DNA of 64,000 nt from positions 12,635 to 76,634 of the forward strand of contig JBMZXF010000001.1 in the NCBI GenBank assembly GCA_049627345.1, in the 5' to 3' direction. Below, piece by piece: positions 3,921 through 46,291 of the stretch. Each line of letters begins with the position of its first letter. Position 1 is the first letter of the stretch. The notes under the pieces were generated by a model that was given only the letters and a program-made list of their open reading frames with translations, was not told the DNA's origin and made no database searches. The DNA is from Poseidonia sp. Its GTDB lineage: Archaea > Thermoplasmatota > Poseidoniia > Poseidoniales > Poseidoniaceae. The position numbers were made by a program, and so were the translations under genes.

Positions 3921-3959
3921 CGCCGCTTCCTTGATGTGGGGCAGGGATGTCGCCCTGTC

Positions 3960-13339: not shown

Positions 13340-14119
13340 TCAGCGACGACCTTTCCTGAGGTTGTCCTCGAGTCGCCAGACCTGTTGGTCGTCGTGATGC
13401 CAAGGGGTTGGCTCACTCGTCGCACGCCGCTCCTGTCGTTCCATCCAATCGTCCAACTGGCGGTGTTCGATTTCATCGGCTTCGTCCTCATAGGGCAAGG
13501 GGGCGAAGAGTTCGGTCAGCGCCCATAGTCCGGGGTCTGCGATCGGCTCGCTGAACTCATCAACTTCGTCGTACATGTAGGCGGCCTCGTCGTCTTCGTC
13601 GTAGACCTCCTCCTCCATGATGACGCCTTCCTCGCTGAACTGATACACGCCTTCGAGCGCTTCTCGGGGCGAGACGATGAACTGGGCCAAGAGGGGGATC
13701 CGCATGGCCGTGGTTTTGTCGTTTTGGAGGGCCAAGGCCAGCGCAGCAACTTGGTCGCCGATGGGGAGGCTCAGGGAACGCTGCGTTGGGTGCATGCACA
13801 GGGCGACCATGAACGGCGTGCGCTCAGCGATGTCTTGTTTCCACGCACCCGCATCGATGCTGGTCCGCCAGTGGACTTCTTTCACTTCCCTGAACTCACC
13901 CTCGACGTCGACGTAATCTTCCACATAATGGGCGTGCAAGCCGACCCGGTACCACCTGCGTGAAGTGCCCCGGATGACCACCCTTGGCAGCCCTTGCTCG
14001 TCCAATGCAAGGGTCATCGCATTGGAACCCTCCACGATGGAATCGAGAAAACGCATGGACTTCACGTGCGCATCTCGCGCAGCCCTCGGCCAGTGTCCAG
14101 GCGGGTTCCAAGCAGTCAT
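13340..14119 (-). CDS. hypothetical protein with acidic C-terminal tail
   Basis: 3' part of the 459-aa ORF has coding-like composition; 5' part is antisense to mocA, so start set at MTAWNP. Confidence 0.7.
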   Translation of the reverse strand: MTAWNPPGHWPRAARDAHVKSMRFLDSIVEGSNAMTLALDEQGLPRVVIRGTSRRWYRVGLHAHYVEDYVDVEGEFREVKEVHWRTSIDAGAWKQDIAERTPFMVALCMHPTQRSLSLPIGDQVAALALALQNDKTTAMRIPLLAQFIVSPREALEGVYQFSEEGVIMEEEVYDEDDEAAYMYDEVDEFSEPIADPGLWALTELFAPLPYEDEADEIEHRQLDDWMERQERRATSEPTPWHHDDQQVWRLEDNLRKGRR

Positions 14120-14194
14120 GCGAGGGAAGTTCTCCGAGCCTATATCAAGGCCCATCCAGCAAAGAACCAAGACACAGCGCAGCGTGTCGGGTCC

Positions 14195-14806
14195 ATGGGA
14201 CCCTCGCCCGTGGCCGCCGTCGTGCTCGCAGCGGGTCTGAGCCGGCGGCTTGGTCGCCCGAAGGCCCTTGTTTCCATCAACGAATTGACGTTGGTCGAGT
14301 GGGCCCATCAACGCCTCAACGAGGCCGGGTGCGAGACCGTGGTTGTGGTCAACAACGACCTTGCCGAAGAGGTGGCACGCTTGCTTCCGGAGGCAACGTT
14401 GGTCGTCAATGACGACCCCGATGCCGGGCGTATGCGTTCGCTGCAACTTGGGTGCGCTGCCTTGGTCGACCAGCGGGGTACGCTCCCCGAACGCCTCGTG
14501 ATAGCGCCGGTGGACCGGCCGGCGTGGAACACGGCGACCCTCCAGGGATTGCTCAACGCCTCCACCAGCAGTGCACCCGCGCACGAAGGCCGTCGTGGTC
14601 ATCCGGTGTTGTTGGACCAGCCGGCCATTGAGGCGGTGGTTTCGGCGAACGCCGATGCCTCGCTCAGGGCCTTGGTTTCGTTTGCTCCAGTTCCCGTTGA
14701 GGCTCCGTGGTTGCACCACAACATCGACACGAAGGCGGATGTGGATCGGCTGCTTGCGGACGAGGCGGCTTGTTTGGCGTGTTTCTCCCGAGGCGAAGGG
14801 ATATGA
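14195..14806 (+). CDS. mocA: molybdenum cofactor cytidylyltransferase (MocA-like nucleotidyltransferase)
   Basis: VVLAAGLSRRLGRPKAL, PVDRP, GRRGHPVL, NIDT; adjacent to xdhC. Confidence 0.8.
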   Translation: MGPSPVAAVVLAAGLSRRLGRPKALVSINELTLVEWAHQRLNEAGCETVVVVNNDLAEEVARLLPEATLVVNDDPDAGRMRSLQLGCAALVDQRGTLPERLVIAPVDRPAWNTATLQGLLNASTSSAPAHEGRRGHPVLLDQPAIEAVVSANADASLRALVSFAPVPVEAPWLHHNIDTKADVDRLLADEAACLACFSRGEGI

Positions 14807-14823: not shown

Positions 14824-15702
14824 GTGTCCATGACCGCTCACGTCCTCCAGTGGGTGCTGAGCGAGTTGGCCTCCCAACGACGCGTTGTCATGGCCACGGT
14901 GCTGAACACTTCGGGAAGCGTTCCCGGAAAGACCGGCGCTCGATTGGCGATGTCCTCCCACGAACACACATGGGTCGGAACCGTGGGTGGTGCGGGGCTT
15001 GAACACCGTGTCCTCCAACGCTGCAGGGAACTGCTCGGCGAAGCCTCGCAACCTTTTGCCGAAGTGCTGACCTACGGGTTGAACAAAGGTGCGAAGGGCT
15101 ATGAGGTGACCCCTCTTGATTCGCTGTGCGGCGGTCGGGTGTCGATCGCCGTTGAGGTGATGATCCCCATGCCACACGTTCACATCATGGGCGGCGGACA
15201 TTGCGGGAAAGCCCTAGCCACCACCCTTCACGGGTTGGGCTGGGATTACTCGGTGCACGACACCAGAGAAGCTTACATCTCGGAAGACAAGTTTCCGCAC
15301 GCCGTGGAGCGTTCTTCTGCTTCCGTGGCAGGCGTCCTTGAAGGGGAGACGGCGTCAACGCTGGGTCGCTTCTCGGACATCTTGCTGCTCGGACACGACT
15401 GGGCAGAGGACCAAGAACGCCTGCTCGGCCTGCTTCAATTGCTCAATCAACCAGGTGTTGTCTTGGACGGCAAGCAGCATCCTCGCATCGGCGTGATCGG
15501 AAGTCGCTCAAAATGGCAGGCCTTTGAGGAGGCGGCGAGGGAACAGGGCGTCTCTCAATCGTTGCTCGACCAAGTCATCTGCCCCATCGGGTTGAACATC
15601 GGAGCGCAATCACCAGAGGAAATCGCCGTGGCGGTGGCCGCTCAAATCATGTCCCTCCACAAAGCCGTGGACCCTGCGTCCGCAACGTGGCGTCAGGCCT
15701 GA
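14824..15702 (+). CDS. xdhC: XdhC/CoxI family Moco sulfuration/insertion chaperone
   Basis: GSVPGKTGA, GTVGG, CGG, GGGH, IGSRSK, PIGLNIGAQSPEEIAV. Confidence 0.9.
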   Translation: MSMTAHVLQWVLSELASQRRVVMATVLNTSGSVPGKTGARLAMSSHEHTWVGTVGGAGLEHRVLQRCRELLGEASQPFAEVLTYGLNKGAKGYEVTPLDSLCGGRVSIAVEVMIPMPHVHIMGGGHCGKALATTLHGLGWDYSVHDTREAYISEDKFPHAVERSSASVAGVLEGETASTLGRFSDILLLGHDWAEDQERLLGLLQLLNQPGVVLDGKQHPRIGVIGSRSKWQAFEEAAREQGVSQSLLDQVICPIGLNIGAQSPEEIAVAVAAQIMSLHKAVDPASATWRQA

Positions 15703-16294: not shown

Positions 16295-19200
16295 TCAAGC
16301 ACCGTTGTTCGCCGCCTCAAAGGTCAACATGATCTGCCCGTTCGGGCCAAACGCTACCACGGGAACGTAGCCGTCGTGAGGCGTCGTCTCGAGGGAGGCG
16401 AGGATGTTGTCCACGGCGTCCTTGGGCAAGCGCAATGCAAAACCTTCGCCCGTATCGAGCAGGCCGCTGTGTCCGGCACGTGGCGGAGTTTGGACGATCT
16501 TCTGGGCAACTTTGCCGTCCCACGAGAGGAACTCTTCGCAGTGGGGGCAGACAAATTCACCAACCTCGCCGTGGTCCAATCCAAAGCGTTCAGAGCAGTG
16601 TGGACATGGGACTTCGACCACATCTTCTTCCTCAGCAACCTCAGCAACAACGGCTTCGGTCGAGGCTCGTACCGGCTCGGGTTCGTCATCGTCGTCAAGG
16701 TCAAGCGTGGCATCGTCCTCTTCATCTGGGACGACCAGTACATCCTCCTCATCTTCGACCTCAACCACCGGCTCAGGGGTCGTTTCCTTGGGTGTTGGTT
16801 CGACAGGTGTTGTGACGGCCGGTGAGGGCGCCGCCGTTCCACCCGTTGAACCTGCTTGGGGCAGAGCAGCGACCTCTTGGTAGATGCCATCGTCTTCGTT
16901 CATGCGCTGCATGAACAGGAAACCGAAGCCAAGGGCCACCATGCCGCTCATCACCGTGGCAATGGCGCTGAACAGCTCGCTGTCGAGTGAATTCGCAAAC
17001 AGGAAGGCCGTGAGGATGGCGCCGTAGCCACCCACGCCTCTTCTCCAGCGAGCATCGGCTTCTTCGCTGAAGCCCTGGATGCCGAGGATCACGAGGTAGA
17101 CCGTCGTCAGCAAGTAGGCCATGGATTCAAGGTTCAAACTGTCAAACATGATGAACAAACCAATGATGGAATAGAGCACACCGCTCATGCCCAAGCGGTC
17201 CATGAAAGCAAAGAAGGCCTCGTCGTTGTCCCAATCAAAGGATTCGTAGTCGTAGATGAGGTCGTCTTTTGCTGACATCAATGTGAGGAGAACGCCTTGC
17301 ACGGCAAGGGTCAGACCGGTCATGGTTTGACGCTGCTCATCCGTGCCAATTTCGGCTTGTGCCATCATGTTGACGATGCTGAAGGTGAGCAAAATAGGAA
17401 GCGCAATCATGCTGTTGGGGCGTCCATCCAGCAAGGCCGAGCGCCCGAGCAACAACAACCCAATGACGGGGCCAACCCCGTAGAACACGGAGTAGCCAGC
17501 GACGAAAGCCAAGGCTGCGATTTGCGTGGCCAGCGCAGCGGTCGAATCCGCCAACTTGATTTCGTCCTCGGTCTCAGGGGGCGTTCGGAACAAGGTTCCG
17601 TAGTGGTGCATGACAGCCATCGTGGTACCGACAAAGCCGGTGATGACACCGCTCCATCCCCATGCATCGGCATCGGTGATCGGCTGGAAGGTGGAACTCA
17701 AAGCAAACCCGATGTAGAGCGAAACGAACAAGGCGCCAAGCATGTAGGGCAGCACCTTGCTGTTGTCGGTGTACCAGAAGTACGGGATGAGGAACAAACA
17801 GCCCAAGGCAGGAGCCCAGTAGCCATCCGGGATGGCAGAAAACAAACCGAACATGAGCCAGACGCCCATGGCCAGGAGGACCAACGTGGATTCGGCCTCG
17901 TCACTTTTGTGGGTGAGCACACCGGACAGGCCGAGGCTCATCTGTACGAGAACGATCAAACCGATGAAGGCAGGATAGGGTCCGTTGTGGTCATCCACCA
18001 GGTAATCCGCAATGTTGGCGGGGGCAGTGTTGAGCAACTCGCCAAAGACGCCGTGGGTAAACCACCCATCACCTTGGAACACATAGACGACGGGGAGCAA
18101 GGCCAAAATCCAGTAGAATCGATATTGCATGGTGCGCCAGGTCACGAGGGCCAAGATCGGCAGGAAGAGCACGCCACCCGAGGTGTCCAGCATGCCCAGC
18201 AAAATGAGCATCAAGTAGGTCACGGCGTCGCTGGACCTGTTCAAACCGTCCGTATCAAGTCCTCTGCGGGCGATGACGACGTTGGCGATCAGCGGTGCGC
18301 TGACCAGAATAAGGTCGAGCAGGAGGGTGGTGGTGTTGATGCCTTCTCCGCTGCCCCAAAGGTCAGGACCGAGCGAAAGGGAAAGCGGCGCAGCGATGAA
18401 GACCAGCAGGGTCACCGCCGAGGCTCGTGTGGCGGAACTGATGGTGTCCATGTTGACCACTTCGCGAATCAGCATGCCGACGGGCAGCGCCATGAGCAAG
18501 ACGAGGTAGGGCTGGTCCGACCACGTCGCTGTTTTGACGCCGCTCACGGTGAAGGTGAACAGCATCAACGAGGTCAGCAGGCTGAATCGTGCCAGCGGCG
18601 TCAAGGCCCCATTGAGGATTCGTTGCTCGTTATCGATGAGGTCGGGCGACTGGACCTCCCACGTGTTGGTTTCCTTGTTATAGGTCATTTCGCCTTCGCC
18701 GCCTTGGCCCAACCAAGCGTAGATGGAACCTGCATCCAACTCGATGTTCGCTGCCTTTGCAGCGAGGGCGTACATGGCCACGCTCAAGACCAAGAACTGG
18801 GGTCGGAAACCCATGTCGACCAGGCCATCAAACGCTCCATTGGGCGGGAGTTTGAGGTTGTCCAGCAGGGCCAACAGCAGAATGGTGATGGCGGTGAACG
18901 CCAAGGCAAGGGTCAGATCCTTGCGTTCCTTGAGTGAGGGGGTCTTGATGGACGTCATCATGCTGTAGTTCATGGTGCACATGTAGGCGATGAGGAGCCA
19001 AGGGAGGAACCACTCGGGGTCGAGGACAGCTCGTGAAAGGATCACAGCGCCGAGCATGGCGAGACTGGTGCTCGTTTCGATCTTCTTCTGACGGCGTCCG
19101 AATTCGGAGACGGCCACCAAAAAGATGGGGATGAGCACGTGCAACCACGTGCCTCCGTACGTGGCTTGGGCCGAGAGGCCTTCCTCGATGCCAATCCAAT

Positions 19201-20512
19201 CGCTGAGCAGGTACGATGCACTGAACGCCAGAAGCGTGATGTTGATGACCCACGATCGTGCAACCTTGGAAATGAACACCATGTAGGGGATGACGATCAT
19301 GCTCAACACCCACGGCAATGTTGACGCTTCCTGCGGGAGCGCCATCAGGGCCACGGCCAAGCCGATGGGCATCCATGGCACTCGCTGCTGGAGCACGGCT
19401 GGGAAGTAAGCGAGCAGCACGGTCACCCAAAGGGCCACAGGGATGTTGACATAAGCGGCTAATTCGGGATAATCACTGGCCCTGAAGGGGCCCAAGATGA
19501 GGTTGAAATCGGGTGCTGTTCGAACCAGAGCAATGGCCACGACGACCATGCCGATGAGGACCACTGAGGCACGTTCCATGACCTCTTTGCGCAGGTCGGG
19601 GCGCGCTGCATAATACCCTTGCATGGCGATGACGAAGACCATCAAGGAAAGGGCGCCGCCCGCTCCGTCGACAGGGGCATTGTCGTTCAGCATCTCGTAG
19701 ATGATGGGCACCACGCCGGCGGCCACGGCCACCACCACGAAGTTCAGCGCACGGTTGGAACGGAGGGCCATCTCCATCGACACGAAACAAATGAACACAA
19801 TCGCAAGACCCAATTCCCAACTGACAACGTTTTCTGACCAACGAATCCACGGCCCAACACCCGCCAAGAGCACGGCCATGGGGGCGTAGGTGGCGACGCC
19901 CCATCCGAAACTGGTGTCGCCGCTGTATCGGCGAAGAAGTCGGTAGTGGCCAAAGGTCAACAGCAGGCAGGTCACGGTTTGCGCATAGATGCCGTTGGCA
20001 TTGGGCGACCAGTCGGTGTCGGTGAAGGCGCTGGGCTCACCGAACCAATCAAGTTCCAGGGTACCCGTGGCGTAGCCCATCAAAAACCGGGTTCCCCAAA
20101 GCGTTCCGACGGTGGAAAAGAAGAAGGCAATGCCGAGGAAATAATTCTGGATGTCATGCAGCCGATACCCGTTTTTCTTGCTTTGAAGTTCAATCAGTAC
20201 GATGGAAACAGCAAACGATGCGAGGCCACCGACGAAGAGGACCAGGAAATTTTGGTTGGTGGCTTCCTCATCAAAGGCCACGCTGAACACGCCGCCCCAA
20301 ATGGACAGGAAACCGATGCCCATCATCACGATTTGAGAGAGTTTCATCAGGAACATGTCGTCCTTGTTGAGATTGGCATTGGGCCGAACCATCGTGATGG
20401 TGCCTGGTTCTGGGGCGCTATCGGCCATGACGCCGCCCGAAAGGGCAGGCCCGCTCGGCGCAGGGGTGGTTTTCATTCGGACGGGTGCGGTTTTTCTCCT
20501 TGGCGCTGCCAT
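16295..20512 (-). CDS. very large polytopic membrane protein with acidic linker and Zn-ribbon near the C-terminus
   Basis: 1405 aa, roughly 30 or more hydrophobic segments; CPHC...CPHC at 16538-16606. Confidence 0.85.
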   Translation of the reverse strand: MAAPRRKTAPVRMKTTPAPSGPALSGGVMADSAPEPGTITMVRPNANLNKDDMFLMKLSQIVMMGIGFLSIWGGVFSVAFDEEATNQNFLVLFVGGLASFAVSIVLIELQSKKNGYRLHDIQNYFLGIAFFFSTVGTLWGTRFLMGYATGTLELDWFGEPSAFTDTDWSPNANGIYAQTVTCLLLTFGHYRLLRRYSGDTSFGWGVATYAPMAVLLAGVGPWIRWSENVVSWELGLAIVFICFVSMEMALRSNRALNFVVVAVAAGVVPIIYEMLNDNAPVDGAGGALSLMVFVIAMQGYYAARPDLRKEVMERASVVLIGMVVVAIALVRTAPDFNLILGPFRASDYPELAAYVNIPVALWVTVLLAYFPAVLQQRVPWMPIGLAVALMALPQEASTLPWVLSMIVIPYMVFISKVARSWVINITLLAFSASYLLSDWIGIEEGLSAQATYGGTWLHVLIPIFLVAVSEFGRRQKKIETSTSLAMLGAVILSRAVLDPEWFLPWLLIAYMCTMNYSMMTSIKTPSLKERKDLTLALAFTAITILLLALLDNLKLPPNGAFDGLVDMGFRPQFLVLSVAMYALAAKAANIELDAGSIYAWLGQGGEGEMTYNKETNTWEVQSPDLIDNEQRILNGALTPLARFSLLTSLMLFTFTVSGVKTATWSDQPYLVLLMALPVGMLIREVVNMDTISSATRASAVTLLVFIAAPLSLSLGPDLWGSGEGINTTTLLLDLILVSAPLIANVVIARRGLDTDGLNRSSDAVTYLMLILLGMLDTSGGVLFLPILALVTWRTMQYRFYWILALLPVVYVFQGDGWFTHGVFGELLNTAPANIADYLVDDHNGPYPAFIGLIVLVQMSLGLSGVLTHKSDEAESTLVLLAMGVWLMFGLFSAIPDGYWAPALGCLFLIPYFWYTDNSKVLPYMLGALFVSLYIGFALSSTFQPITDADAWGWSGVITGFVGTTMAVMHHYGTLFRTPPETEDEIKLADSTAALATQIAALAFVAGYSVFYGVGPVIGLLLLGRSALLDGRPNSMIALPILLTFSIVNMMAQAEIGTDEQRQTMTGLTLAVQGVLLTLMSAKDDLIYDYESFDWDNDEAFFAFMDRLGMSGVLYSIIGLFIMFDSLNLESMAYLLTTVYLVILGIQGFSEEADARWRRGVGGYGAILTAFLFANSLDSELFSAIATVMSGMVALGFGFLFMQRMNEDDGIYQEVAALPQAGSTGGTAAPSPAVTTPVEPTPKETTPEPVVEVEDEEDVLVVPDEEDDATLDLDDDDEPEPVRASTEAVVAEVAEEEDVVEVPCPHCSERFGLDHGEVGEFVCPHCEEFLSWDGKVAQKIVQTPPRAGHSGLLDTGEGFALRLPKDAVDNILASLETTPHDGYVPVVAFGPNGQIMLTFEAANNGA

Positions 20513-24439: not shown

Positions 24440-25042
24440 ATGGTTGGCGAAGAACATGTCTCAATGATTCCTGCCCCTGAAGGAAAGCGATGGGCTGCAA
24501 CCGTGAACGGGCGTCCCTTCGAGGTGTTGGCGCCCAGCAACGCCGTCTTGCTGGATGTGCTTCGCGATAAGGTCGGCACACTCGGCGTGAAGCGCGGATG
24601 CGACCTTGGCACCTGTGGATGCTGCACGGTCATGATCGACGGTGTTCCAAAACTGTCGTGTCTAACCCTGGCTGGTCAGGTCCAGGGTGCCGAGATTATC
24701 ACGGTCGAGGGCCTGTCCGACGGCGCTCATTTGGCGCCCATTCAAACCTGCTTTGCGACCCACGGCGGGTCACAATGCGGGTTCTGTACGCCGGGGTTCC
24801 TCATCGCTTCCCAAGCACTGCTTAACGAGAACAACAACCCGACTCGAGATGAGATCGCGTGCGCCATCGAGGGCAACCTGTGCCGCTGCACGGGCTATCA
24901 GCAAATCATTGACTCCATCGAGGCTGCCGCTGCCATTCACCGAGGCGATGCTGCCGCCGCTGCACCTGCCAGCGACCCGCATCCAGACCCTCATCCTTCC
25001 GGGCCTGAGGAGCCCACCATGCCGCCCGGCCATGCGAAGTGA
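24440..25042 (+). CDS. molybdenum hydroxylase small subunit, 2x[2Fe-2S] (HcrC/CoxS-like)
   Basis: GCDLGTCGCCTV...SC, QCGFCTPG, GNLCRCTGY. Confidence 0.95.
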   Translation: MVGEEHVSMIPAPEGKRWAATVNGRPFEVLAPSNAVLLDVLRDKVGTLGVKRGCDLGTCGCCTVMIDGVPKLSCLTLAGQVQGAEIITVEGLSDGAHLAPIQTCFATHGGSQCGFCTPGFLIASQALLNENNNPTRDEIACAIEGNLCRCTGYQQIIDSIEAAAAIHRGDAAAAAPASDPHPDPHPSGPEEPTMPPGHAK

Positions 25043-27849
25043 TCACCATGGGAAGCTATCGTCAACAACCGGGCACCTCCTCGTCAGAGGTTCGCAAAGA
25101 CGGCAAGCGCGTCGCAGGAAAGCAGGTGTTTCCGCCACCGGGTTCCGGCGGAAGCGAACCAACCATGCGCCCCCGAGATCTTGATTTCATCCCTGAAACC
25201 GTGGGTGGGAAGGAGCCAAAACCCGCTGGCGACCACATCCACGACCGCGACCGCACGGGTACGATTGTTGGGAAGCCTATCCCGCTGGTGGATTCCAATG
25301 CCAAGGTCACCGGCCAAGCATGGTACGGCGACGATGTTCGCCTGCCCGGCGAACTCATCGGTAAAATTCTGCGCTCGCCGCATCACTACGCTCGCATCAA
25401 ATCCATCGACACTTCTCGGGTGGAAGCCCTTCCCGGTGTCGTGGCCGTGTCCACCGGACAGGATGCGCCCAATCGATTTGGCGTTCTCCCGGTGACCAAA
25501 GACGAGCACGCCATGGCCGTCGAGAAGGTCCGACACGTGGGCGACCTGGTGGCCTGCGTCGCAGCGGTTGACGAAGCCACGGCCATTGAAGCCCTGTCGC
25601 TGTTCGACATTGAATGGGAAGAACTCGAACCGGTCTTTGACCCCAAGAAGGGATTGGAGGACCATGACGAACCCATCCACTGGCGAGGCAAGTACCACCT
25701 GGCTCGCACCAACGTTCAGAAGCGTGTCTTCCAGGAGTTCGGCGACCGTTCGCTCGTGAACTCGCCCCACGCCTCCTCCCACGGTTCTTGGACGATGTTG
25801 GGTGTCCACCACGGGTTCACCGAACCCCACGCTGTCGTGGCCCACTGGGACCCCAACGGGCGCCTCCAACTCTACACGCCTCAACAAGTGCCGCACTACA
25901 CGCACCGTGCCCTCTCAACCGTTCTCGACGTTCCCATGCACCAAATCAACGTGGTTCGCACCTTTGTCGGCGGCGGTTTCGGCGGCAAATCCGATCCCTT
26001 CCCGCACGAGATGTGCGCCGCTATTTTGGCGCGGAAATCCGGCCGACCCGTTCGCATCACCTTTGACCGAGAAGAGGTCTATTGGATCAACCGTGGACGG
26101 CACCCGAGCCACATCGATGTGAAGATGACCGCCGACACCGAAGGTCGGATTTCGAGTTTCGACATCGACGCCCTCATCGACGGTGGTGGTTTTGCTTCCT
26201 TCGGCCACGTCACGTCCTACTACAACGGTGTGCTGGCCACAGCGCCTTACGAACTCGGTTCGTTCCACTACACCGGTGCTCGCGTTTGGACCAACAAACC
26301 AGCATCGGGCGCCATGCGTGGCCACGGCGCCGTCAACACACGCTGCGCCGTTGAGGTTGGATTGGATGAGATGGCCGAATCGATGAACGTTGACCCCATC
26401 GACCTTCGGCTTGCCAACCTTTTGCCGCCGCACAGTCGAACCATCAGCGGTTTCCGCATCACCTCCAACGGCATGAGGGAAGCGCTCGAGCGCGTGCGTG
26501 AAGGCTCGAAGTGGGATGAAAAATTCCGTCAGATGCCGTTGGGCAAAGGGATTGGTATCGGGTGCGGTTTCTTCATTTCTGGTTCTGGATTGCCCATTCA
26601 TTGGGACCCGAAGAATTTCCCACACGCCACCGTTCACATCCAGGTCGACATGGACGGTGGTGTTACCGTCCACACCGGTGCTGCTGACATCGGCCAGGGC
26701 TCAACCACCGCTGTAGCTCAAGTGGTGGCTGAAGTGTTGGCGTTGCCCATCGAGATGGTCCATGTCCGCAGCCACGAGAGTGACACCAGCCCTGTTGACC
26801 TCGGTTCCTATTCCAGCCGTGTCACGTTCATGAACGCCAACGCCGCCATCCGTGCGGCCATCGGCATCCGAGACCAACTGCTCAAGGCAGCCTGGGAGAT
26901 GCTGGGCTACCACCCGAACGTCCTCGTGCTGAACGACCGTCGGATTTACTACAAGCACGACCCCGCTATCGGCGTTTCCTACCTCGAGGCACTTCACAAG
27001 GCTCAGGCCGATACCGGGGCCCTCATCGCTCGAGGCGCCTACCGCTCACCGCCCATGGGTGGCGTGCACAAAGGTGCCGCTGCCGGCCTTGCACCGGCGT
27101 ATTCGTTCTCCGCCTACGTGGCCGAGGTTGATGTCGATGTCGAGACCGGTCTGGTGTCCTGCACCAACGTGTGGGCCGCTCACGACTGTGGAAAAGCGCT
27201 CAACCCGTTGGCCGTGAAAGGACAGATCATCGGCTCGTGCCACATGGGTCTCGGCCAGGTGTTGACCGAGAAGATGGTCTACGGTCGCACCGGGCACCTT
27301 CAAAACGCCAACCTGTTGGAATACAAGATCCCCTCCGTTCACGAAATGCCTCACGTCGAGGCCATCATCGTGGAATCCAGCGACCCCGAGGGGCCATTTG
27401 GCGCCAAAGAAGCGGGCGAAGGTCCCCTTCTCCCCATCTTGCCGGCCGTGGTGAACGCCGTCTACGATGCCATCGGCGTCCGCCTGCGAGACTTGCCGCT
27501 GACGCCGGATGTTGTTCATGCTGGCATTCAAAAGCACCTCAAGAAGCACGGGCTGGATGACGAAGAACAGATGGAATCTCCTCGCTTGAAGCACGGCCCG
27601 CTGCAGTCGGTGTTGGTCGCTCGAGGCGATGAGCACCGAGAACGCGACCGCCTCAGGCAACGCAGTGAAGACACCTCTGCCTACGTCAACGGTGTTCTGT
27701 TTGGGTTCGACCCCGACCGACCGCTCTCCGAACAGGTTGACGGTTGGCGAGAGGCCGACGAGCCTCTGCCTGAGCAACTGGCTGAGCTTGGATTTGCAGG
27801 GCGAGCCTGGCTCAAAAAAGAGCAGCGCCACATGGAGGATGATGCCTGA
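25039..27849 (+). CDS. xanthine oxidase family molybdopterin-binding large subunit (HcrA-like)
   Basis: GGGFGGK, GAMRGHG, TGAADIGQGS, GSYSSRVTFM, GKALNPLAV, GPFGAKEAGE. Confidence 0.92.
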   Translation: MITMGSYRQQPGTSSSEVRKDGKRVAGKQVFPPPGSGGSEPTMRPRDLDFIPETVGGKEPKPAGDHIHDRDRTGTIVGKPIPLVDSNAKVTGQAWYGDDVRLPGELIGKILRSPHHYARIKSIDTSRVEALPGVVAVSTGQDAPNRFGVLPVTKDEHAMAVEKVRHVGDLVACVAAVDEATAIEALSLFDIEWEELEPVFDPKKGLEDHDEPIHWRGKYHLARTNVQKRVFQEFGDRSLVNSPHASSHGSWTMLGVHHGFTEPHAVVAHWDPNGRLQLYTPQQVPHYTHRALSTVLDVPMHQINVVRTFVGGGFGGKSDPFPHEMCAAILARKSGRPVRITFDREEVYWINRGRHPSHIDVKMTADTEGRISSFDIDALIDGGGFASFGHVTSYYNGVLATAPYELGSFHYTGARVWTNKPASGAMRGHGAVNTRCAVEVGLDEMAESMNVDPIDLRLANLLPPHSRTISGFRITSNGMREALERVREGSKWDEKFRQMPLGKGIGIGCGFFISGSGLPIHWDPKNFPHATVHIQVDMDGGVTVHTGAADIGQGSTTAVAQVVAEVLALPIEMVHVRSHESDTSPVDLGSYSSRVTFMNANAAIRAAIGIRDQLLKAAWEMLGYHPNVLVLNDRRIYYKHDPAIGVSYLEALHKAQADTGALIARGAYRSPPMGGVHKGAAAGLAPAYSFSAYVAEVDVDVETGLVSCTNVWAAHDCGKALNPLAVKGQIIGSCHMGLGQVLTEKMVYGRTGHLQNANLLEYKIPSVHEMPHVEAIIVESSDPEGPFGAKEAGEGPLLPILPAVVNAVYDAIGVRLRDLPLTPDVVHAGIQKHLKKHGLDDEEQMESPRLKHGPLQSVLVARGDEHRERDRLRQRSEDTSAYVNGVLFGFDPDRPLSEQVDGWREADEPLPEQLAELGFAGRAWLKKEQRHMEDDA

Positions 27850-28814
27850 TGCTGATGCCTCCGTTTGAACTCCACCACCCCACCACGGTGGCCGAAGCGG
27901 TTGAACTGGCCGCTTCGCTGATGGGACAGAACGAAGCCTTCGATTGGGTTGCTGGTGGCACGGACGTGCTTCCAAACTACAAGTGGCGCATCAACCCCAA
28001 ACCACACGTCATTTCGCTCGCAGGTATTGATGAAGCGCACCATCTCTCGGCCACGGAAATTGGTTGCATGGTGCCGCTGTCCTCCCTGACGGCAGCCAAC
28101 GACGTGCATCCTCTGCTCGTCGAAGCAGCAGCCAAGATCGCCTCCTCGTTGATCCGAAAGAGCGCCACCGTCGGTGGAAACCTGTGCTTGGACACCCGTT
28201 GTTTCTGGTACAATCAAAGCGAGGACTGGCGCCGTTCCATCGACTGGTGTCACAAAGCAGATTGCGGTACTGGCGCCGATTGTCGTGTGATTCCCAACCA
28301 GAACACCTTGTGCGTCGCCACCTACCAGGGTGACCTCGCACCGAATTTCATGGTCCTCGGCGCATCCGTGGTCCTCATCGGTCCCGAGGGCCAACGCACG
28401 CTCCCCATCTCGGAATTTTACGAACTTGACGGCATGAAGAAGAACGTGCTCCAACCCGGAGAATTCCTGCTGAAGGTGGAACTTCCTGCGGACGCCAAGA
28501 AGCGAAGGGGTTGCTACCAGAAACTGCGGGTGCGTGAATCATGGGATTTCCCCGAAGCCGGCATCGCCGCTTCGTGGCTTCCCGGTGATGCCTCGACGCT
28601 GAAGGTGGCGAGCACGGCCCTCGAATCCATCCCACGTCTTCATGATGAACAGGTGGAAGCGCACCTCGCTGAAGGTGACCTTGACCCGATCGGATTGGCG
28701 GTGCTGGTCCAAAAATCGGTCAAGCCCGTGAACAACACGGCCTTGCCGCCTCGGTACCGTCGTTCGATGGTGAAAACGCTGACCAAGCGGGCCCTTCGAG
28801 GTATTCTGGATTGA
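27849..28814 (+). CDS. FAD-binding medium subunit with Cys-rich [4Fe-4S] insertion (HcrB-like)
   Basis: AGGTD, ATVGGNLCLDTRC-x2-YNQSEDWR...C...C...C...C-x-ATYQGDLAP. Confidence 0.92.
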   Translation: MLMPPFELHHPTTVAEAVELAASLMGQNEAFDWVAGGTDVLPNYKWRINPKPHVISLAGIDEAHHLSATEIGCMVPLSSLTAANDVHPLLVEAAAKIASSLIRKSATVGGNLCLDTRCFWYNQSEDWRRSIDWCHKADCGTGADCRVIPNQNTLCVATYQGDLAPNFMVLGASVVLIGPEGQRTLPISEFYELDGMKKNVLQPGEFLLKVELPADAKKRRGCYQKLRVRESWDFPEAGIAASWLPGDASTLKVASTALESIPRLHDEQVEAHLAEGDLDPIGLAVLVQKSVKPVNNTALPPRYRRSMVKTLTKRALRGILD

Positions 28815-28823
28815 GGCGGTTTC

Positions 28824-29798
28824 GTGAAGCAAGTTGCCCCTCTCCTCCTGGCCCTCATGCTGGCGTTGACGCTACCGGTCGGGCAGGCTCAAGACATGCA
28901 GGGGCCTTCCTGGGAGATGGGTTGGGTCACGGACGTTGACCCGAAGTACGTCGTCGACCTTGAGGACGATTGGGATTTGACCGGAGAGTTGGTGGTGTAC
29001 GTGGCCAACGAGGGCCCAGCCGCCCTGAACCTCGCCCTCACCTACGATTACGACGAGGACGGGCCCTTCGAGCTGAACGGTCCAGAGAGCATCGAAGTGG
29101 CTGGCAACACCAACGACACCTTCCGCATCACCATCACGGGCGCTGAGGCCGATGTTGTGCGAGCATTCTCTCCTTCCTCCAGCGTCGAACTCGTCGTCGT
29201 TGGCGAGGAAAAGGTGGGCGACTCAACCTTGAGGACGCAAGAACTCGAAGCCGACATCACGGTGCCGAGGATGTACCGGCTGGTGCCCGACGCGATGGCG
29301 CCGACCGACGTGCTGTTCGCAGGCTCATGGGTTGACTTTACGCTCGAGGTGAGCAACCTGGGCAACACGCAAGACGCCATTACGATGGGTGAGGCTACGG
29401 TCAGGAGTTGCCCTCACCTGACGGTTTCGGGATTGGAACAACTCGACAACACCGTCGTGCAAGTCACCAACGCCAACGGGGACAACAAAGCGACCTTCAC
29501 GCTCCGACTTGAAGCAAGTTCGAGCCATCAGGAGCGAACCTGCGAGGTGTCCATCGCCGTAGAATCCGAAGGCGATGGCAACCAGCGTTCCAGCACGTTC
29601 AACGTGGACGTCAGTGCGCCAGCTGCCGACGATCCGACCGTGCCCGACGATGAGGTCGAGGAGGACGGTTCGAACTCACTCAGCACCTCCGATTCACTCC
29701 CTTGGCCGCCGGTTGGACAACTCCTGATGGCCTGTGCGGTCGCCGTTCTGTTCGCTCGGAGAAATTCCACGACCGAGTCAACTGGGGAAAAGATGTAA
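28824..29798 (+). CDS. secreted Ig-like/beta-sandwich surface protein with C-terminal anchor
   Basis: Signal peptide, NEGP and NLGNTQD beta-sandwich motifs, acidic linker, LPW + TM + RR tail. Confidence 0.75.
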   Translation: MKQVAPLLLALMLALTLPVGQAQDMQGPSWEMGWVTDVDPKYVVDLEDDWDLTGELVVYVANEGPAALNLALTYDYDEDGPFELNGPESIEVAGNTNDTFRITITGAEADVVRAFSPSSSVELVVVGEEKVGDSTLRTQELEADITVPRMYRLVPDAMAPTDVLFAGSWVDFTLEVSNLGNTQDAITMGEATVRSCPHLTVSGLEQLDNTVVQVTNANGDNKATFTLRLEASSSHQERTCEVSIAVESEGDGNQRSSTFNVDVSAPAADDPTVPDDEVEEDGSNSLSTSDSLPWPPVGQLLMACAVAVLFARRNSTTESTGEKM

Positions 29799-29814
29799 TT
29801 TTCTCTCGTTTGGC

Positions 29815-29838
29815 CGGTTCTTGAACAACCAAGAACCG
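29815..29838. repeat. perfect 9-bp inverted repeat
   Basis: CGGTTCTTG-aacaac-CAAGAACCG, 16 nt after the upstream stop. Confidence 0.7.
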
Positions 29839-29917
29839 AAGCACTGTGGGAATGAAACCTCAGAATTTTCCTGCCCATCGTTGAGCAACTATTATGTGTG
29901 GAATGTGTCTCCGAAGG

Positions 29918-29945
29918 TTGTAAATCTATGGTTTTCACCATAGAT
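29918..29945 (+). promoter_or_regulatory. TATA-like box overlapped by a perfect 9-bp palindrome (candidate operator)
   Basis: TTGTAAAT then ATCTATGGT-tttc-ACCATAGAT (29924-29945), 14 nt before ATG 29960. Confidence 0.55.
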
Positions 29946-29959
29946 ACGGGGGACGCACC

Positions 29960-31537
29960 ATGGCAGAAGCAGAACGAACCAGTTTGAGCCTTGAAGCATG
30001 GCTCATGATTGGTCTTTTGGTCTCCGTTCTCCTTTCAACGGTCGTGATTGCGGTGGTTTCCGCCGGAAAAACCACCGTGTTTTCTCCTTACGAAACCGAG
30101 TCGGACTACCAAGAGCAACAACTCACGTTCATGCGAGACAGCGTTGAGGACTTCACCGTCGCCAATACGATGTCGACGCCCATGTTGGTGAACGACTGGC
30201 AGAACCCTCATCGCACGCTCTTGGTCATCGCTGCTCCCGAGAAGCCCTTTGATGCTGCTGAGGCCGCCGCCATCCACGACTTCGTCACCGAGCGAGCCGG
30301 CAAGGTCATCCTCGCCTCCAACTCGACCAACGCCCAACAGGTGGCTGAAGAGTTCGGTGTGAAGTACTTTGACGCACCCGTGCGCGACGACATCAACACC
30401 GGCCGCTACTACGAGGTCACCGACGAAAACGACGACCGAATTTCTCCCGACACCAAGAAACTCTGGTCGGTCGCCAGCGTGAAGCGAAATGTCACCTCGA
30501 TGGGCGATGAAAAGGCCGTCCCCTGTTCCGAGGAAGATGTCCGTCAAGAGAACATCAACAACTGCCGCATGCCGGTCCTGTTCCACCGCCCCACGGCCAT
30601 TCAGATCTTGGATGAACAAGTCGACACGAAGCGCCAATACCACGTGCTGGCTGCCGCCTCAACCTCCGCAGAAGTTGACGCCGGTAAGGGCGATTCCAAC
30701 CCCACCTTGGGTGAAGGCGAAACGGGCCTTATCATCCGTATCGACTACCCCGGCCAAACCGTCCTTGACCAGCGCTCCCTCGAGAAGGGCGGCGACATCG
30801 GAGAGATCAGCGCCACCGGCAGCATCGTCTTCGTCTCCGACCATTCCGTGCTGGCCAACCACCTCTGGGACCAAGCCTACGCCGAAGAAACCGGCAAGCA
30901 ACAATGTGATTCTGAACTCTACATCCAATTCGGCCACATGTGCTGGGATACCGATTCCGAGGGTCTGAACAAGGGCCTCGGCGACACCACCTGGCGTGGC
31001 AACGAGGCGTTCTTCACCGCACTCATCAACGACATGATGGAGTTCGACAACGACGAGCTTTCAGCCACCATCGCCCGTGATACCTCGGCGTTTAACGTGG
31101 TGTTCGACGAAAGCCGCCACGTGTCGGGCAGCCTTTCCATGCCGTTCACCGAAGCCATGGGCGCCATCGTCTTGCTCACGAGCGATGGCGTGCTCAAGTG
31201 GCTCATCATCCTCAACCTCTTTGCGCTCTTGGCCATCGCCATCATGGTGGTCCCAGAGAAGGAAAACTGGCGTCACGTTTTCGACTTGACGCGATTCAGG
31301 GAGCGTCCAACCAAATTGGACCCGTCCCAATACCAACGGCGAACCCGAGAGGCCTTCCTCACCAAGGTTCGCAATTTCAACGACCTGACGCGAGACGAAT
31401 TCGCTCGCAAGTCCCCAGCGGAAGTCATACAGATGATCCGCGAACCCCGATTGGTCGAACTGGTCAGTTCGAACCGTGCCTACTCCAACGAAGAATTGAG
31501 GGAGCTCATCCCGCAAATCCGTCGTTGGGGAAATTGA
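29960..31537 (+). CDS. DUF4350-like (GATase-like fold) membrane-anchored protein
   Basis: N- and C-terminal TMs; LLVIAAPEKPF, GSIVFVSDHSVLAN, VVFDESRH; precedes moxR. Confidence 0.7.
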   Translation: MAEAERTSLSLEAWLMIGLLVSVLLSTVVIAVVSAGKTTVFSPYETESDYQEQQLTFMRDSVEDFTVANTMSTPMLVNDWQNPHRTLLVIAAPEKPFDAAEAAAIHDFVTERAGKVILASNSTNAQQVAEEFGVKYFDAPVRDDINTGRYYEVTDENDDRISPDTKKLWSVASVKRNVTSMGDEKAVPCSEEDVRQENINNCRMPVLFHRPTAIQILDEQVDTKRQYHVLAAASTSAEVDAGKGDSNPTLGEGETGLIIRIDYPGQTVLDQRSLEKGGDIGEISATGSIVFVSDHSVLANHLWDQAYAEETGKQQCDSELYIQFGHMCWDTDSEGLNKGLGDTTWRGNEAFFTALINDMMEFDNDELSATIARDTSAFNVVFDESRHVSGSLSMPFTEAMGAIVLLTSDGVLKWLIILNLFALLAIAIMVVPEKENWRHVFDLTRFRERPTKLDPSQYQRRTREAFLTKVRNFNDLTRDEFARKSPAEVIQMIREPRLVELVSSNRAYSNEELRELIPQIRRWGN

Positions 31538-31554
31538 AACAAGGAGGATAAGAC

Positions 31555-32682
31555 ATGCAACCCCCAGCCCCCCCAGCAGCCCCGCCCGCGCCTGTTCCTG
31601 CAGCGCCAGCAGCACCGGTGGCCCCTGCCGCACCCGCCCCACCAGTGGCGCCAGCAGCACCCGCCGCACCTGTTGCACCTGCAGCACCGGCCGCTCCGGC
31701 CCAGCCGAAGCACCAGAGTACCCCTGAAGTCCGAGAGCGCCTCAAGGCCGTCGGTGCGATTGCTCAAGCAATCTCTGCCGAAGTCCAGAAGGTCATCATC
31801 GGTAAGTCGCACGTCATCGACAACGTGTTGATCAACATCCTGTCCAACGGGAACCTTCTCTTCGAAGACTACCCCGGTCTGGCCAAGACGCTGATGACCA
31901 ACACCTTCGCCGATGCCCTTGGTTGCGACTTCAAGCGTGTTCAATTCACGCCTGACTTGCTCCCTGCTGACATCACCGGTACCAACATCTACGACGCCAA
32001 GAAAGGCGAGTTTACGTTCAAGCCCGGTCCACTGTTCTGCAATCTCCTCCTCGCTGACGAGATCAACCGTGCACCGCCCAAGACCCAAGCAGCTCTGCTT
32101 GAGGCCATGCAGGAAAAGCAAGTGACCATCGGTACGGTGACCCACAAGTTGCCAGCCCCGTTCATCGTTATGGCCACGCAGAACCCTGTGGAGCAGGAAG
32201 GTACCTACCCGCTCCCCGAAGCACAGCTTGACCGTTTCATGTTCAAGATGTCCGTCGGATACCCAGACCGTGCAGACGAGGACGAAATCCTCGCCCGCCG
32301 TATCAGCCGTGGAAAGGACGCTGTTGACGTTGACGTCATCACCGACCCTGCCCGTGTCATCGCCATGCAGCAAGCCTGTGAAGACGTCTACGTCGACCCT
32401 GCGCTGCGCATGTACATGGTCGAAATCGTGTCCCGCACCCGTGAGGACCCCCGCGTTCTCGTCGGCGCTTCGCCTCGTGGTTCCCAGGCCCTCCTGAAGA
32501 CCTCTCGAGCCGCCGCCGCCCTTCGAGGTCGCGACTTCGTCACCCCCGACGACGTGAAGGCCATTGCTGAACTCGCCATCGCCCACCGTATCATCTTGAA
32601 GCCTGAGCACCAAATCAAGGGTCTCGAATCCGGAGAGGTCATCCAGTCCATCCTCCGTGAAGTCCCTGTGCCCACGGTTTGA
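31555..32682 (+). CDS. moxR: MoxR family AAA+ ATPase with Pro/Ala-rich N-terminus
   Basis: EDYPGLAKT, RVQFTPDLLPADITG, LADEINRAPPKTQAALLEAMQE, EGTYPLPEAQLDRF. Confidence 0.95.
   Translation: MQPPAPPAAPPAPVPAAPAAPVAPAAPAPPVAPAAPAAPVAPAAPAAPAQPKHQSTPEVRERLKAVGAIAQAISAEVQKVIIGKSHVIDNVLINILSNGNLLFEDYPGLAKTLMTNTFADALGCDFKRVQFTPDLLPADITGTNIYDAKKGEFTFKPGPLFCNLLLADEINRAPPKTQAALLEAMQEKQVTIGTVTHKLPAPFIVMATQNPVEQEGTYPLPEAQLDRFMFKMSVGYPDRADEDEILARRISRGKDAVDVDVITDPARVIAMQQACEDVYVDPALRMYMVEIVSRTREDPRVLVGASPRGSQALLKTSRAAAALRGRDFVTPDDVKAIAELAIAHRIILKPEHQIKGLESGEVIQSILREVPVPTV
31558..31705 (+). repeat. low-complexity PAAPAAPVA coding repeat
   Basis: About 50 codons of Pro/Ala/Val with degenerate 9-aa periodicity. 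Confidence 0.8.
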
Positions 32683-32715
32683 AGCTGAACGCTTGCACAA
32701 CGAGGTGAATCAAAC

Positions 32716-34029
32716 ATGTGGAGTCGTAAGTCAGCCATGCTTGGCAGCCTAGCTGTTGCCATGTACTTGCTCGGCTTGACGCTCCGAAACACCCAACTCG
32801 TCACGATCGCCGTGGTTATCTTCGTGTTCCTTACCTGGGCTGCACTCCTTGGGAACCATGCGGATGTTGCATCGAGCGGCCGTCGTGCCGACGAGTGGAG
32901 TGGAGAGGAAGGCGTTGCCCTTGGCAGCGTCGTCGCCATGCGAAAACTGTCCAGCGCTCGCATGTTTGAGGATGGAGAATTGAACGTCACCCTCCGGATG
33001 CAAAACACGTCATCGTTGCCGAAGATTTTGGAAGTGCGCGACCGCGTTCCCGAAGTCATGCGCATCAAAGAAGGCGCCAACTACATCCTGATGGAACTCG
33101 GCCCACGCCGTGAGACCTTCATTGAATACACCGTCGAATGCCCCCTCCGTGGCTTCTACAGCCTCGGGCCCGTGGCCGTTCGAATCCAGGACGCCTTCGG
33201 GTTGTTCCACAAGGAAAAGGAATTGCATGTCTACAACGATTTCCTTGTGTTCCCGAAGATGGAAGACCTCAAGGAAACCTTCGTCAAGTCGCGTGTTCCC
33301 AAAATCTTCACCGGTGCCGTCAACATTCGACAACCCGGTCCAGGTTCGGAATTTTACTCCCTTCGTGAGTACTTCGAAGGTGATTCCTTCCGTGCCATCA
33401 ACTGGTCGGCCTACGCTCGCTCTGGCAAGCTGATGGTCAACGAACGTGAGCGAGACGCCGTCTCTGACGTGATCATCATCGTCGATTCTCGTGCCGTTGC
33501 CGAAACCGGACCGGTGTCGAGAAACGCCCTGGTCTACTCGACCCGAGCCGCTGCCTCCCTGGCCAAGTACTTCCTTGGCCGCCGCGACTCGGTGGGTGTC
33601 ATCGTGTACGGCGACGAAGTGGTCAGCGTCGACCGAGACACTGGCAAGAAGCAACTCTACGTGATTTTGACCAAACTCGCCGGCGCTGTTGCTCGTGGAA
33701 ACATCCCGCTGCAAGTCGTTGTGAACCGCATTCTGCCTCACATCAACAAGGGAAGCCCGATCATCTTCCTGTCCAACCTTGAAGACGACCCGACCATCGT
33801 GAATGCGTTGCGAGATTTCCGAGCCCGAGACTTTGACGTCACCGTGCTCTCGCCATCGTCTCTTGAGTTTGAATTCGATGCCAAGCGCATCGACCGAACC
33901 GGATACGAGGTCATGAAGACCGAGCGCGACGTGCTCATTGGCGAACTCCGTGGACTCGGTGTGAACATCATGGATTGGGAGCCTGACATGCTTCTCTCCA
34001 CCGCTCTGGCAGGAGCACGAGGATTCTGA
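32716..34029 (+). CDS. DUF58 domain protein (MoxR partner)
   Basis: RGFY, EFYSLREYFEGDSFRAINWSAYAR...LMVNE; SD GAGGTGA. Confidence 0.9.
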   Translation: MWSRKSAMLGSLAVAMYLLGLTLRNTQLVTIAVVIFVFLTWAALLGNHADVASSGRRADEWSGEEGVALGSVVAMRKLSSARMFEDGELNVTLRMQNTSSLPKILEVRDRVPEVMRIKEGANYILMELGPRRETFIEYTVECPLRGFYSLGPVAVRIQDAFGLFHKEKELHVYNDFLVFPKMEDLKETFVKSRVPKIFTGAVNIRQPGPGSEFYSLREYFEGDSFRAINWSAYARSGKLMVNERERDAVSDVIIIVDSRAVAETGPVSRNALVYSTRAAASLAKYFLGRRDSVGVIVYGDEVVSVDRDTGKKQLYVILTKLAGAVARGNIPLQVVVNRILPHINKGSPIIFLSNLEDDPTIVNALRDFRARDFDVTVLSPSSLEFEFDAKRIDRTGYEVMKTERDVLIGELRGLGVNIMDWEPDMLLSTALAGARGF

Positions 34030-43779: not shown

Positions 43780-43928
43780 ATGGAGGGGTTTCGTAATCGC
43801 TCTATGAGTATTATGTCCGGGAAACATGTAGGTCAACCATCGTGTCGCTCGGGCTGGCGACTCGTGATGGAAGAAATGTGCCGGAAACAGGTGAAGGATT
43901 CATGGGGTTGTTTCGCACCGTTTGGTTC

Positions 43929-46240: not shown

Positions 46241-46291
46241 GAACAGGGGGGGAGGCATTTGTTCAAAAGGGGTCTCCTCTCACCTCACGCC

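Follow-up and report, generated by a model that had tools for sequence, protein, structure and literature searches.

Does an operon that resembles, in gene order and in many of its motifs, that of the 4-hydroxybenzoyl-CoA reductase (HcrCAB) of Thauera and Aromatoleum encode the same reductase when it is found in an aerobic archaeon? The question is raised by positions 24440-28814 of a 64,000-nucleotide stretch of Poseidonia sp. DNA (positions 12,635 to 76,634 of contig JBMZXF010000001.1, assembly GCA_049627345.1), which we refer to as a whole as the window, and where three genes encode a molybdoenzyme of the xanthine oxidase family. Poseidoniales, or Marine Group II, the order to which named homologues assign the window, are among the most abundant archaea of surface seawater, and to our knowledge the order has no cultured member. 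We favor, with a probability of about 0.55, the reading that this enzyme is the Poseidoniales orthologue of an archaeal clade that is a near neighbor of 4-hydroxybenzoyl-CoA reductase yet lies outside it, and that it works as an oxidative, ferredoxin-linked hydroxylase. It is highly probable that the clade is distinct from Hcr, and 4-hydroxybenzoyl-CoA is probably not the substrate; that the enzyme does not belong with HcrCAB follows from its scores, its position in trees, its invariant residues and its genomic context. The operon and the parts of it discussed below are as follows.

24440-25042, plus strand: small subunit with [2Fe-2S] clusters, 200 amino acids (open reading frame list and Pfam)
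25039-27849, plus strand: large molybdopterin-binding subunit, 936 amino acids, with a catalytic core at approximately residues 76-829
27849-28814, plus strand: medium subunit binding flavin adenine dinucleotide (FAD), 321 amino acids (Pfam FAD_binding_5)
28185-28340, plus strand: Cys-rich insertion of the FAD subunit, predicted to be a [4Fe-4S]-binding loop (alignment to HcrB)
25039-25266, plus strand: Gly/Pro-rich extension at the N-terminus of the large subunit (residues 1-76), confined to Marine Group II
27526-27846, plus strand: charged extension at the C-terminus of the large subunit (residues 830-936), likewise confined to Marine Group II

Relation to 4-hydroxybenzoyl-CoA reductase

The three open reading frames lie on the plus strand with overlapping junctions, in agreement with the coupled small, large and medium subunits of a preliminary description of the window. 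The TGA of the small-subunit gene (25040-25042) overlaps the GTG start of the large-subunit gene at 25039 (GTGA), for which an alternative in-frame ATG is found at 25048, 9 nucleotides past the GTG, and the TGA of the large-subunit gene (27847-27849) and the ATG of the FAD-subunit gene at 27849 have one A in common (TGATG). The subunit order, gamma-alpha-beta, is that of HcrCAB, and it was also found in 9 Hcr loci. The domains are those of the xanthine oxidase, or molybdenum hydroxylase, family: Ald_Xan_dh_C (the hammerhead domain), MoCoBD_1 and MoCoBD_2 with a catalytic Glu in the large subunit; Fer2_2 (3.9e-29) and Fer2, hence two [2Fe-2S] domains, in the small subunit, whose C-terminal tail is of low complexity and rich in Pro and Ala; and FAD_binding_5 in the medium subunit, where the match is stretched across 210 residues because of the Cys-rich insertion. 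With E-values against the Hcr models of 1.7e-235 (large), 1.4e-69 (FAD) and 7e-53 (small), a chance match is ruled out, and the region does encode a three-subunit enzyme of this family. Short contigs from four RNA libraries, belonging to two studies, map to all three genes, and one of them (27655-27875) spans the junction between the large- and FAD-subunit genes with zero mismatches, with the proviso that DNA carry-over is possible. Parts of the stretch have no RNA contigs, which proves nothing, as neither transcript levels nor transcript ends can be read from such contigs.

The Hcr models are the top NCBIfam match for all three subunits, and yet each score stays below the equivalog cut-off: 178.5 bits against 257.8 for the small subunit (TIGR03193, HcrC), 783.9 against 994.55 for the large subunit (TIGR03194, HcrA), and 234.7 against 404.55 for the FAD subunit (TIGR03195, HcrB). 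The models behave as expected, in fact, as the Aromatoleum anaerobium small and FAD subunits used as positive controls pass at 293.2 and 529.5 bits; for the large subunit, the cluster representative P0140 does so at 1301.7 bits. The runner-up NCBIfam families reach at most 510 bits. Among solved structures, HcrA (1RM6 chain A) matches the large subunit with 596 bits and the next structure with 265, while 1RM6 chain B matches the FAD subunit with 156.5 bits, followed by a structure at 76.8 and with PaoB at 66.1. A scan of 1.84 billion cluster representatives returned 47,349 matches at E ≤0.001; among the 56 best representatives of near-full length, P0140 alone passed the HcrA cut-off, and a 634-amino-acid fragment reached 980.6 bits. 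Near relatives of P0140 in named genomes come from seven Aromatoleum species, one Thauera metagenome-assembled genome, Sulfuritalea and others, and include denitrifying bacteria in which Hcr was studied. By BLASTP, the small, large and FAD subunits are 50%, 40% and 36% identical to those of Thauera sp. Hcr, 45% (to XdhC), 31% and 24% to those of E. coli Xdh, 41%, 28% and 27% to those of E. coli Pao, and 59%, 69% and 57% to their Marine Group IIb counterparts.

Phylogeny points the same way. Large-subunit trees built with FastTree (157 rows) and with IQ-TREE (63 rows, both as a quick run and with bootstraps) all agree. In the bootstrapped IQ-TREE tree, the 9 Marine Group II rows form a clade (100/100) that sits in an archaeal clade of 19 rows (100/99), made of 16 Thermoplasmatota and 3 cluster representatives, and the true Hcr clade of Thauera and Aromatoleum (10 rows, 100/100) excludes all 9 of them. 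A superclade of 39 rows (100/99) holds true Hcr, the archaeal clade, an uncharacterized clade of 9 rows and P0133; E. coli XdhA and PaoC fall far outside it, PaoC being the most distant row of all. The trees of the FAD subunit (98) and of the small subunit (99) likewise split Marine Group II from true Hcr, so that the nesting inside a characterized clade that the preliminary description had set as its own refutation is not seen for any of the three subunits. Its proposal of an uncharacterized clade near HcrCAB stands, given a clade that is separate and fully supported, scores below all three Hcr cut-offs, and differing loops.

These loops belong to a wider pattern of substitution. Over 24 large-subunit rows 134 positions are invariant, and a further comparison identifies 69 positions at which 9 Marine Group II rows all share one residue and 9 Hcr rows all share another. 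Where the archaeal clade has GGKSDPFPHE, true Hcr has G(H/A)R(T/V)E.LNFE; CGFFISG is replaced by CSH(F/Y)VSG, PVDLGSYSSR by PKDNGSYSSR, and GLAPAYSF by G(S/P)(T/S)M(G/A)(F/Y)SY. The archaeal versions are also found in uncharacterized representatives such as P0125 and P0128, and the Hcr versions are private to Hcr. All the motifs previously quoted for the large subunit were located in the protein encoded at 25039-27849, namely GAMRGHG, PHATVHIQVDMDGG, TGAADIGQGS, GSYSSRVTFM and GGGFGGKSD. The first four are common to 1RM6 chain A, where the fifth is replaced by GGGFGARTE, and the remark that this last loop is unlike that of HcrA was therefore accurate. Residues Q283, R427 and E794 are conserved at 90% or more in a 71-row alignment, and we take R427 and E794 to be the equivalents of the xanthine oxidase Arg and Glu.

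As previously described, the Cys-rich loop of the FAD subunit carries six Cys residues (C113, C118, C134, C139, C145 and C155, at nucleotides 28185-28334), and C118, C134, C145 and C155 align with HcrB C122, C138, C146 and C155, which we take to be the [4Fe-4S] ligands of that protein. These four columns are kept in 20 of 22 aligned FAD subunits: 9 from Hcr, 6 from Thermoplasmatota outside Marine Group II, 4 from further Marine Group II genomes, and that of the window; the remaining 2, both from family f36, lack the entire loop. The insertion is thus of the HcrB type, approximately 40 residues with four Cys, and on this basis is predicted to bind a [4Fe-4S] cluster. In Marine Group II it additionally holds a 4-residue insert with one further Cys that is not fully conserved. 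A similar four-Cys loop, however, aligns in PaoB (5G5G) and in the Methylobacillus aldehyde oxidase (5Y6Q chain B), and because both of these enzymes are oxidative, the loop is silent on the direction of the reaction. The earlier suggestion that the combination of motifs and Cys loop is a hallmark of HcrA and HcrB is too narrow, as the loop is not specific to Hcr.

The large subunit is also longer than HcrA. Its residues 75-826 align with residues 10-758 of the 769 of the HcrA chain, leaving about 65-75 residues at the N-terminus and about 100 at the C-terminus, close to the 70 and 90 first estimated. Both extensions are conserved across Marine Group IIa, IIb and family f2. In the N-terminal one, the motifs GY[RK]QQPG, PGSGG and IPE..GG are kept across 9 Marine Group II rows; the C-terminal one is kept in 9/9 Marine Group II rows and missing in 4 other Thermoplasmatota and 2 Hcr rows. 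Searched by tblastn, both match only Marine Group II orthologues, with nothing elsewhere in the genome or in the loci fetched from outside Marine Group II, and an ESM Atlas search returned noise-level matches only (≤0.79 for the C-terminal extension). Our guess is that they add contact surface for the docking of a partner.

Distribution, neighboring genes and pathway partners

The source genome (1.86 Mb, 87% complete) holds one large subunit of the xanthine oxidase family. A match to it is present in 121/121 Poseidoniales genomes, with the source genome counted, including 56/56 of high quality, and in 21/21 genera. Because it is present in all of these genomes, and in one copy here, we consider it a single-copy core gene of the order. 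Where the match covers most of the protein, identity across the order is 67-100%, and a few pieces cut by contig ends are shorter and less similar; matches in the order that no contig end cuts short reach residues 930-936, and so take in the C-terminal extension, and those outside the order stop near residue 833. Of the 201 genomes sampled from the phylum Thermoplasmatota, 65 had some match, and matches of orthologue grade, set at 49% identity or more over the core, were found in 36 Marine Group II genomes (source included) and in 16 others, from families f4, f10, f22, f26, f31 and f33. Subunit I of haem-copper oxidase (COX1) is found in 49 of these 52 genomes, compared to 74/201 in the sample overall, where 25 aerobes are without the clade; the clade occurs in only 3 of the 127 COX1-negative genomes, two of which belong to Marine Group II and are 92% complete. 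The clade is therefore nearly confined to oxygen-respiring Thermoplasmatota, a pattern rather than the outcome of a statistical test, as relatives are not independent of each other.

The surroundings of the operon in the window include the following genes.

3936-5129, strand not given: MoeB-like gene (window annotation)
13994-14806, plus strand: MobA/MocA-like nucleotidyltransferase (Pfam NTP_transf_3, 5.5e-27), likely a molybdenum cofactor cytidylyltransferase
14824-15702, plus strand: XdhC-family cofactor-insertion chaperone (Pfam XdhC_CoxI and XdhC_C)
43842-45035, plus strand: tryptophan 2,3-dioxygenase
46160-47368, strand not given: haem A synthase
47365-48378, strand not given: haem O synthase

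The MocA-like protein is the top of 6 NTP_transf_3-type matches in the genome, and its role is proposed because its gene adjoins that for XdhC. The two genes lie 9 kb upstream of the operon, and their presence makes the cytosine dinucleotide form of the molybdenum cofactor probable. In loci L024, L025, L026 and L032, from other Thermoplasmatota, the operon has an XdhC or MocA gene as its direct neighbor. Molybdenum cofactor biosynthesis was listed as a core trait of Poseidoniales by Rinke et al. in 2019 (PMC6461757), and the enzyme described here is the sole client of this pathway from the xanthine oxidase family in the genome.

The last three genes listed are the aerobic neighbors pointed out in the preliminary description. 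In the phylum sample, tryptophan 2,3-dioxygenase is encoded by 36/36 Marine Group II genomes and by many aerobic Thermoplasmatota besides; in several Marine Group IIa genomes its gene and that of the molybdoenzyme share a contig, 17-23 kb apart. As a specific partner it was rejected, being present in family f28 (6/6), which lacks the clade, and missing in family f22 (0/3), which has it.

Twelve loci, six of them from Marine Group II and six from other Thermoplasmatota, show no catabolic partner beside the operon. In the latter six, which represent the closest clade, the flanks encode XdhC, MocA, transporters, one aldehyde dehydrogenase and unknowns. Downstream of the operon in the window, 9 nucleotides past the FAD-subunit gene, a cluster on the plus strand (28824-34029) encodes a secreted protein of the choice-of-anchor-T type, a DUF4350 protein, a MoxR AAA+ ATPase and a DUF58 protein. 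The cluster is syntenic in Marine Group IIa and IIb, and RNA-library contigs map on it. It is not beside the operon in the loci examined outside Marine Group II, and for this reason we treat it as a separate unit. Elsewhere in the window, two very long open reading frames on the minus strand, at 16295-20512 (1405 amino acids) and 48545-51775 (1076 amino acids), have no Pfam match at the thresholds used, and neither does a 209-amino-acid frame between two KaiC-family ATPase genes (52692-54984, plus strand).

A search of the genome for pathway partners, in which every absence is qualified by the 87% completeness and does not prove that a gene is lacking, found no benzoyl-CoA pathway. The BcrB/C family gave 0 matches, which extends to the genome the absence of a benzoyl-CoA reductase noted earlier for the window; the only AMP-forming ligase is of the FadD type, and no recognizable aryl-CoA ligase, including 4-hydroxybenzoate-CoA ligase, was found. 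Neither BoxC (81.7 bits against a cut-off of 712.3) nor BoxA (75.5 against 459.2) has an equivalog, and a BoxB-like protein reaches about 200 bits where the cut-off for BoxB, the benzoyl-CoA epoxidase, is 499. The search likewise found no xanthine/uracil permease, uricase or HIU hydrolase. One tungsten/molybdenum enzyme of the AOR family is present, and so are one 2-oxoacid:ferredoxin oxidoreductase and small ferredoxin-like open reading frames.

The BoxB-like di-iron protein (about 390 amino acids, Pfam PaaA_PaaC) is split by a contig break in this genome (C33:1-468, minus strand, and C4:1-504, plus strand; loci L015 and L016), with a full-length copy at L117:1417-2577, and its gene adjoins those for enoyl-CoA hydratases, 3-hydroxyacyl-CoA dehydrogenase and aldehyde dehydrogenase. 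It is found in 59/201 Thermoplasmatota genomes and in 35/36 of Marine Group II. Outside Marine Group II, a strong match occurs in 9 of 16 clade-bearing genomes and also in 12 aerobes without the clade, and since co-variation with the clade is only partial we did not retain it as a co-inherited partner. 

Two other arrangements were seen among the relatives. In a genome of the same class (G146, family f4; locus L028, 7521-11388), a relative of 49% identity has its 2Fe-2S and molybdenum-subunit genes followed not by a FAD subunit but by an acyl-CoA dehydrogenase gene, with a stop/start overlap with the preceding gene, amid thiolases, AOR, a short-chain dehydrogenase and methylmalonyl-CoA mutase. 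In family f36 (L029 and L030), a distant Hcr-like form of 41% identity has fused 2Fe-2S and molybdenum subunits and a FAD subunit without the Cys loop, and its neighbors are an AMP-forming CoA ligase, an ADP-forming acyl-CoA synthetase and a ketopantoate-reductase-like gene.

Direction and substrate of the reaction

Because the enzyme is universal in the order, restricted to aerobes and without pathway partners, and because oxidative enzymes share its extra cluster, we lean towards an oxidative reaction, the hydroxylation of an aromatic, heteroaromatic or aldehyde substrate that is always at hand, rather than reductive dehydroxylation. The substrate would react at the molybdenum center, with the conserved Glu794, Gln283 and Arg427 nearby, and electrons would run between the molybdenum and a ferredoxin-type carrier, in one direction or the other, by way of two [2Fe-2S] clusters, FAD and [4Fe-4S], in this order from the molybdenum. 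A niche role in the breakdown of marine aromatics, which the preliminary description had offered as an example, fits poorly with a single-copy core gene present in all the Poseidoniales genomes, and with the lack of an adjoining catabolic partner.

Several points weigh against the oxidative reading, or against the distance from Hcr on which it builds. The nearest characterized enzyme is a reductase, and the identity to it (40%, 36% and 50% for the large, FAD and small subunits) exceeds the 32.7% reported between 4-hydroxybenzoyl-CoA reductase and Ucdh, the urolithin C dehydroxylase of Enterocloster bolteae (PMC12771579). The FAD subunit is far nearer to HcrB than to PaoB (156.5 and 66.1 bits), the host makes reduced ferredoxin, so that a reductive reaction is feasible, and the association with aerobes is confounded by shared ancestry. 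In the tree, the node that joins true Hcr directly to the archaeal clade is weak (75/20). Finally, the loops that differ from Hcr likely line the active site, an assignment that relies on motif homology to bovine xanthine oxidase. Reductive dehydroxylation is a serious alternative. According to the paper on Ucdh, this enzyme is the second reductive member of the family and more are to be expected (PMC12771579); as it acts on something other than a CoA ester, relatives of Hcr can take such substrates.

In its most specific form, this alternative would have the operon encode a functional 4-hydroxybenzoyl-CoA reductase, or an aryl-CoA dehydroxylase that is near to it and likewise reductive, that removes a para-hydroxyl with ferredoxin electrons delivered through the [4Fe-4S] cluster, and whose product might feed the BoxB-like di-iron oxygenase. 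This we consider unlikely, in spite of the following points in its favor. The Hcr models are the best for all three subunits, 1RM6 is the best structure for the two searched (large and FAD), gene order, four-Cys loop and many cofactor-binding motifs are identical, and some orthologues bear the name 4-hydroxybenzoyl-CoA reductase in Joint Genome Institute (JGI) and NCBI records. The genome has the 2-oxoacid:ferredoxin oxidoreductase, nearly all Marine Group II genomes have the BoxB-like gene, and Hou et al. reported in 2016 that boxB is highly expressed in Marine Group II in Red Sea metatranscriptomes (PMC5069720). None of the three subunits reaches its equivalog cut-off, however, the clade is separate, and 69 residues that are invariant in Hcr are replaced. 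Furthermore, BcrB/C, an aryl-CoA ligase, BoxA and BoxC were not found in the genome, the BoxB-like protein falls well short of its own cut-off, and this gene and the clade do not track each other outside Marine Group II. In addition, 4-hydroxybenzoyl-CoA reductase is described as oxygen-sensitive and ferredoxin-dependent (PMC12771579), and the clade is one of aerobes.

An alternative that we regard as somewhat less credible is a broad-range aldehyde oxidoreductase similar to PaoABC, with a role in detoxification or in the oxidation of aldehydes, and with the extra [4Fe-4S] cluster handing electrons on to ferredoxin. The four-Cys loop common to PaoB and the Methylobacillus aldehyde oxidase, a stand-alone operon with only cofactor-maturation genes near it, as for pao, and the status of core gene in aerobes would all suit such a function, and in one family f10 genome (L024) an aldehyde dehydrogenase gene lies directly 3' of the operon. 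Nevertheless, identity is only 28% to PaoC and 27% to PaoB, the PaoC and PaoA equivalog models are missed by a wide margin (285.8 against 1180 bits and 125.8 against 322 bits), and PaoC is the most distant row of the tree. Moreover, the genome already has an AOR-family enzyme, and we saw no feature specific to aldehydes.

We give little credence to a hybrid aromatic pathway operating under oxygen in Marine Group II, in which a ferredoxin-driven, Hcr-like dehydroxylation of an aryl-CoA, derived for example from tyrosine or algal phenolics, would be followed by BoxB-like ring opening; our literature search found no organism in which an Hcr-like and a BoxB-like enzyme are so combined.

A xanthine or purine dehydrogenase for purine catabolism or salvage is very unlikely. 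Damashek et al. treated xdhC and yagS of Marine Group IIb as putative xanthine dehydrogenase genes in 2021; together with the high transcription of pbuG, the annotations led them to infer that xanthine is catabolized (PMC9723583). These genes are known to us by the annotation names given there, and may not belong to this operon. E. coli-type XdhA is the second-best NCBIfam family, and R427 and E794 are conserved, but all the xanthine dehydrogenase models are missed (510.2 against a cut-off of 780, 503.7 against 916 and 402.9 against 783.65 bits), E. coli XdhA lies far outside the superclade, and the genome, at 87% completeness, yielded neither a xanthine/uracil permease nor a uricase or HIU hydrolase. 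GGGFGGK is moreover followed by Ser and not by Glu, the residue that binds the substrate in the bovine and Rhodobacter enzymes. The enzyme does not fit aerobic carbon monoxide dehydrogenase (CoxLMS) either, as the models of the latter are missed (288.4 against 991.15 and 305.9 against 950 bits) and the large subunit has no form I AYxCSFR motif, as already noted in the preliminary description.

Metabolic models of these archaea that adopt one of the public names unquestioned are probably wrong. The enzyme is universal in its order, strongly conserved, represented in RNA libraries and equipped with lineage-specific extensions, and yet it is inconsistently named, its orthologues being recorded, depending on the entry, as 4-hydroxybenzoyl-CoA reductase, aldehyde oxidase or xanthine dehydrogenase. 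Our literature search found nothing that pairs 4-hydroxybenzoyl-CoA reductase with Marine Group II or Poseidoniales, nor hcrA with Thermoplasmatota, and a broader one found no work on the Marine Group II form of the enzyme. To identify the true substrate would close a gap in what is known of the core metabolism of a major group of ocean archaea, and would give a new function to that branch of the family in which its rare reductive members fall.

Comparison with known systems

HcrCAB of Thauera and Aromatoleum (PDB 1RM6 and 1SB3) was the best match in every search run, and the two systems share the three subunits and their order, the GAMRGHG, TGAADIGQGS and GSYSSRVTFM motifs, the catalytic Glu and the four-Cys loop. 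They differ in that identity is only 40%, 36% and 50% for the large, FAD and small subunits, the cut-offs are missed, the clade is separate and 69 residues are substituted, including the loop after GGGFG; the Marine Group II enzyme also has its large-subunit extensions, the 4-residue insert in the Cys loop, an aerobic host and no benzoyl-CoA pathway that we could find. With E. coli PaoABC (5G5G) it has in common a heterotrimeric structure and the four-Cys Fe-S loop of the FAD subunit, and the pao operon too is stand-alone, with an XdhC-type chaperone of its own; in contrast, identity is 41%, 28% and 27% for the small, large and FAD subunits, PaoC is far outside the superclade, and PaoABC is described as periplasmic (PMC3958847). 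E. coli XdhABC (NF043082 and NF007426) has the same three-subunit layout and is the second-best model family, but its FAD subunit aligns without the Cys insertion (24%, with weaker, split matches), its genes are in the order A-B-C, and it falls outside the superclade. Lastly Ucdh, which we compared by its published description only, resembles the enzyme studied here in that its closest characterized relative is 4-hydroxybenzoyl-CoA reductase, with which it shares 32.7% identity, and differs from it in using reduced nicotinamide adenine dinucleotide (PMC12771579).

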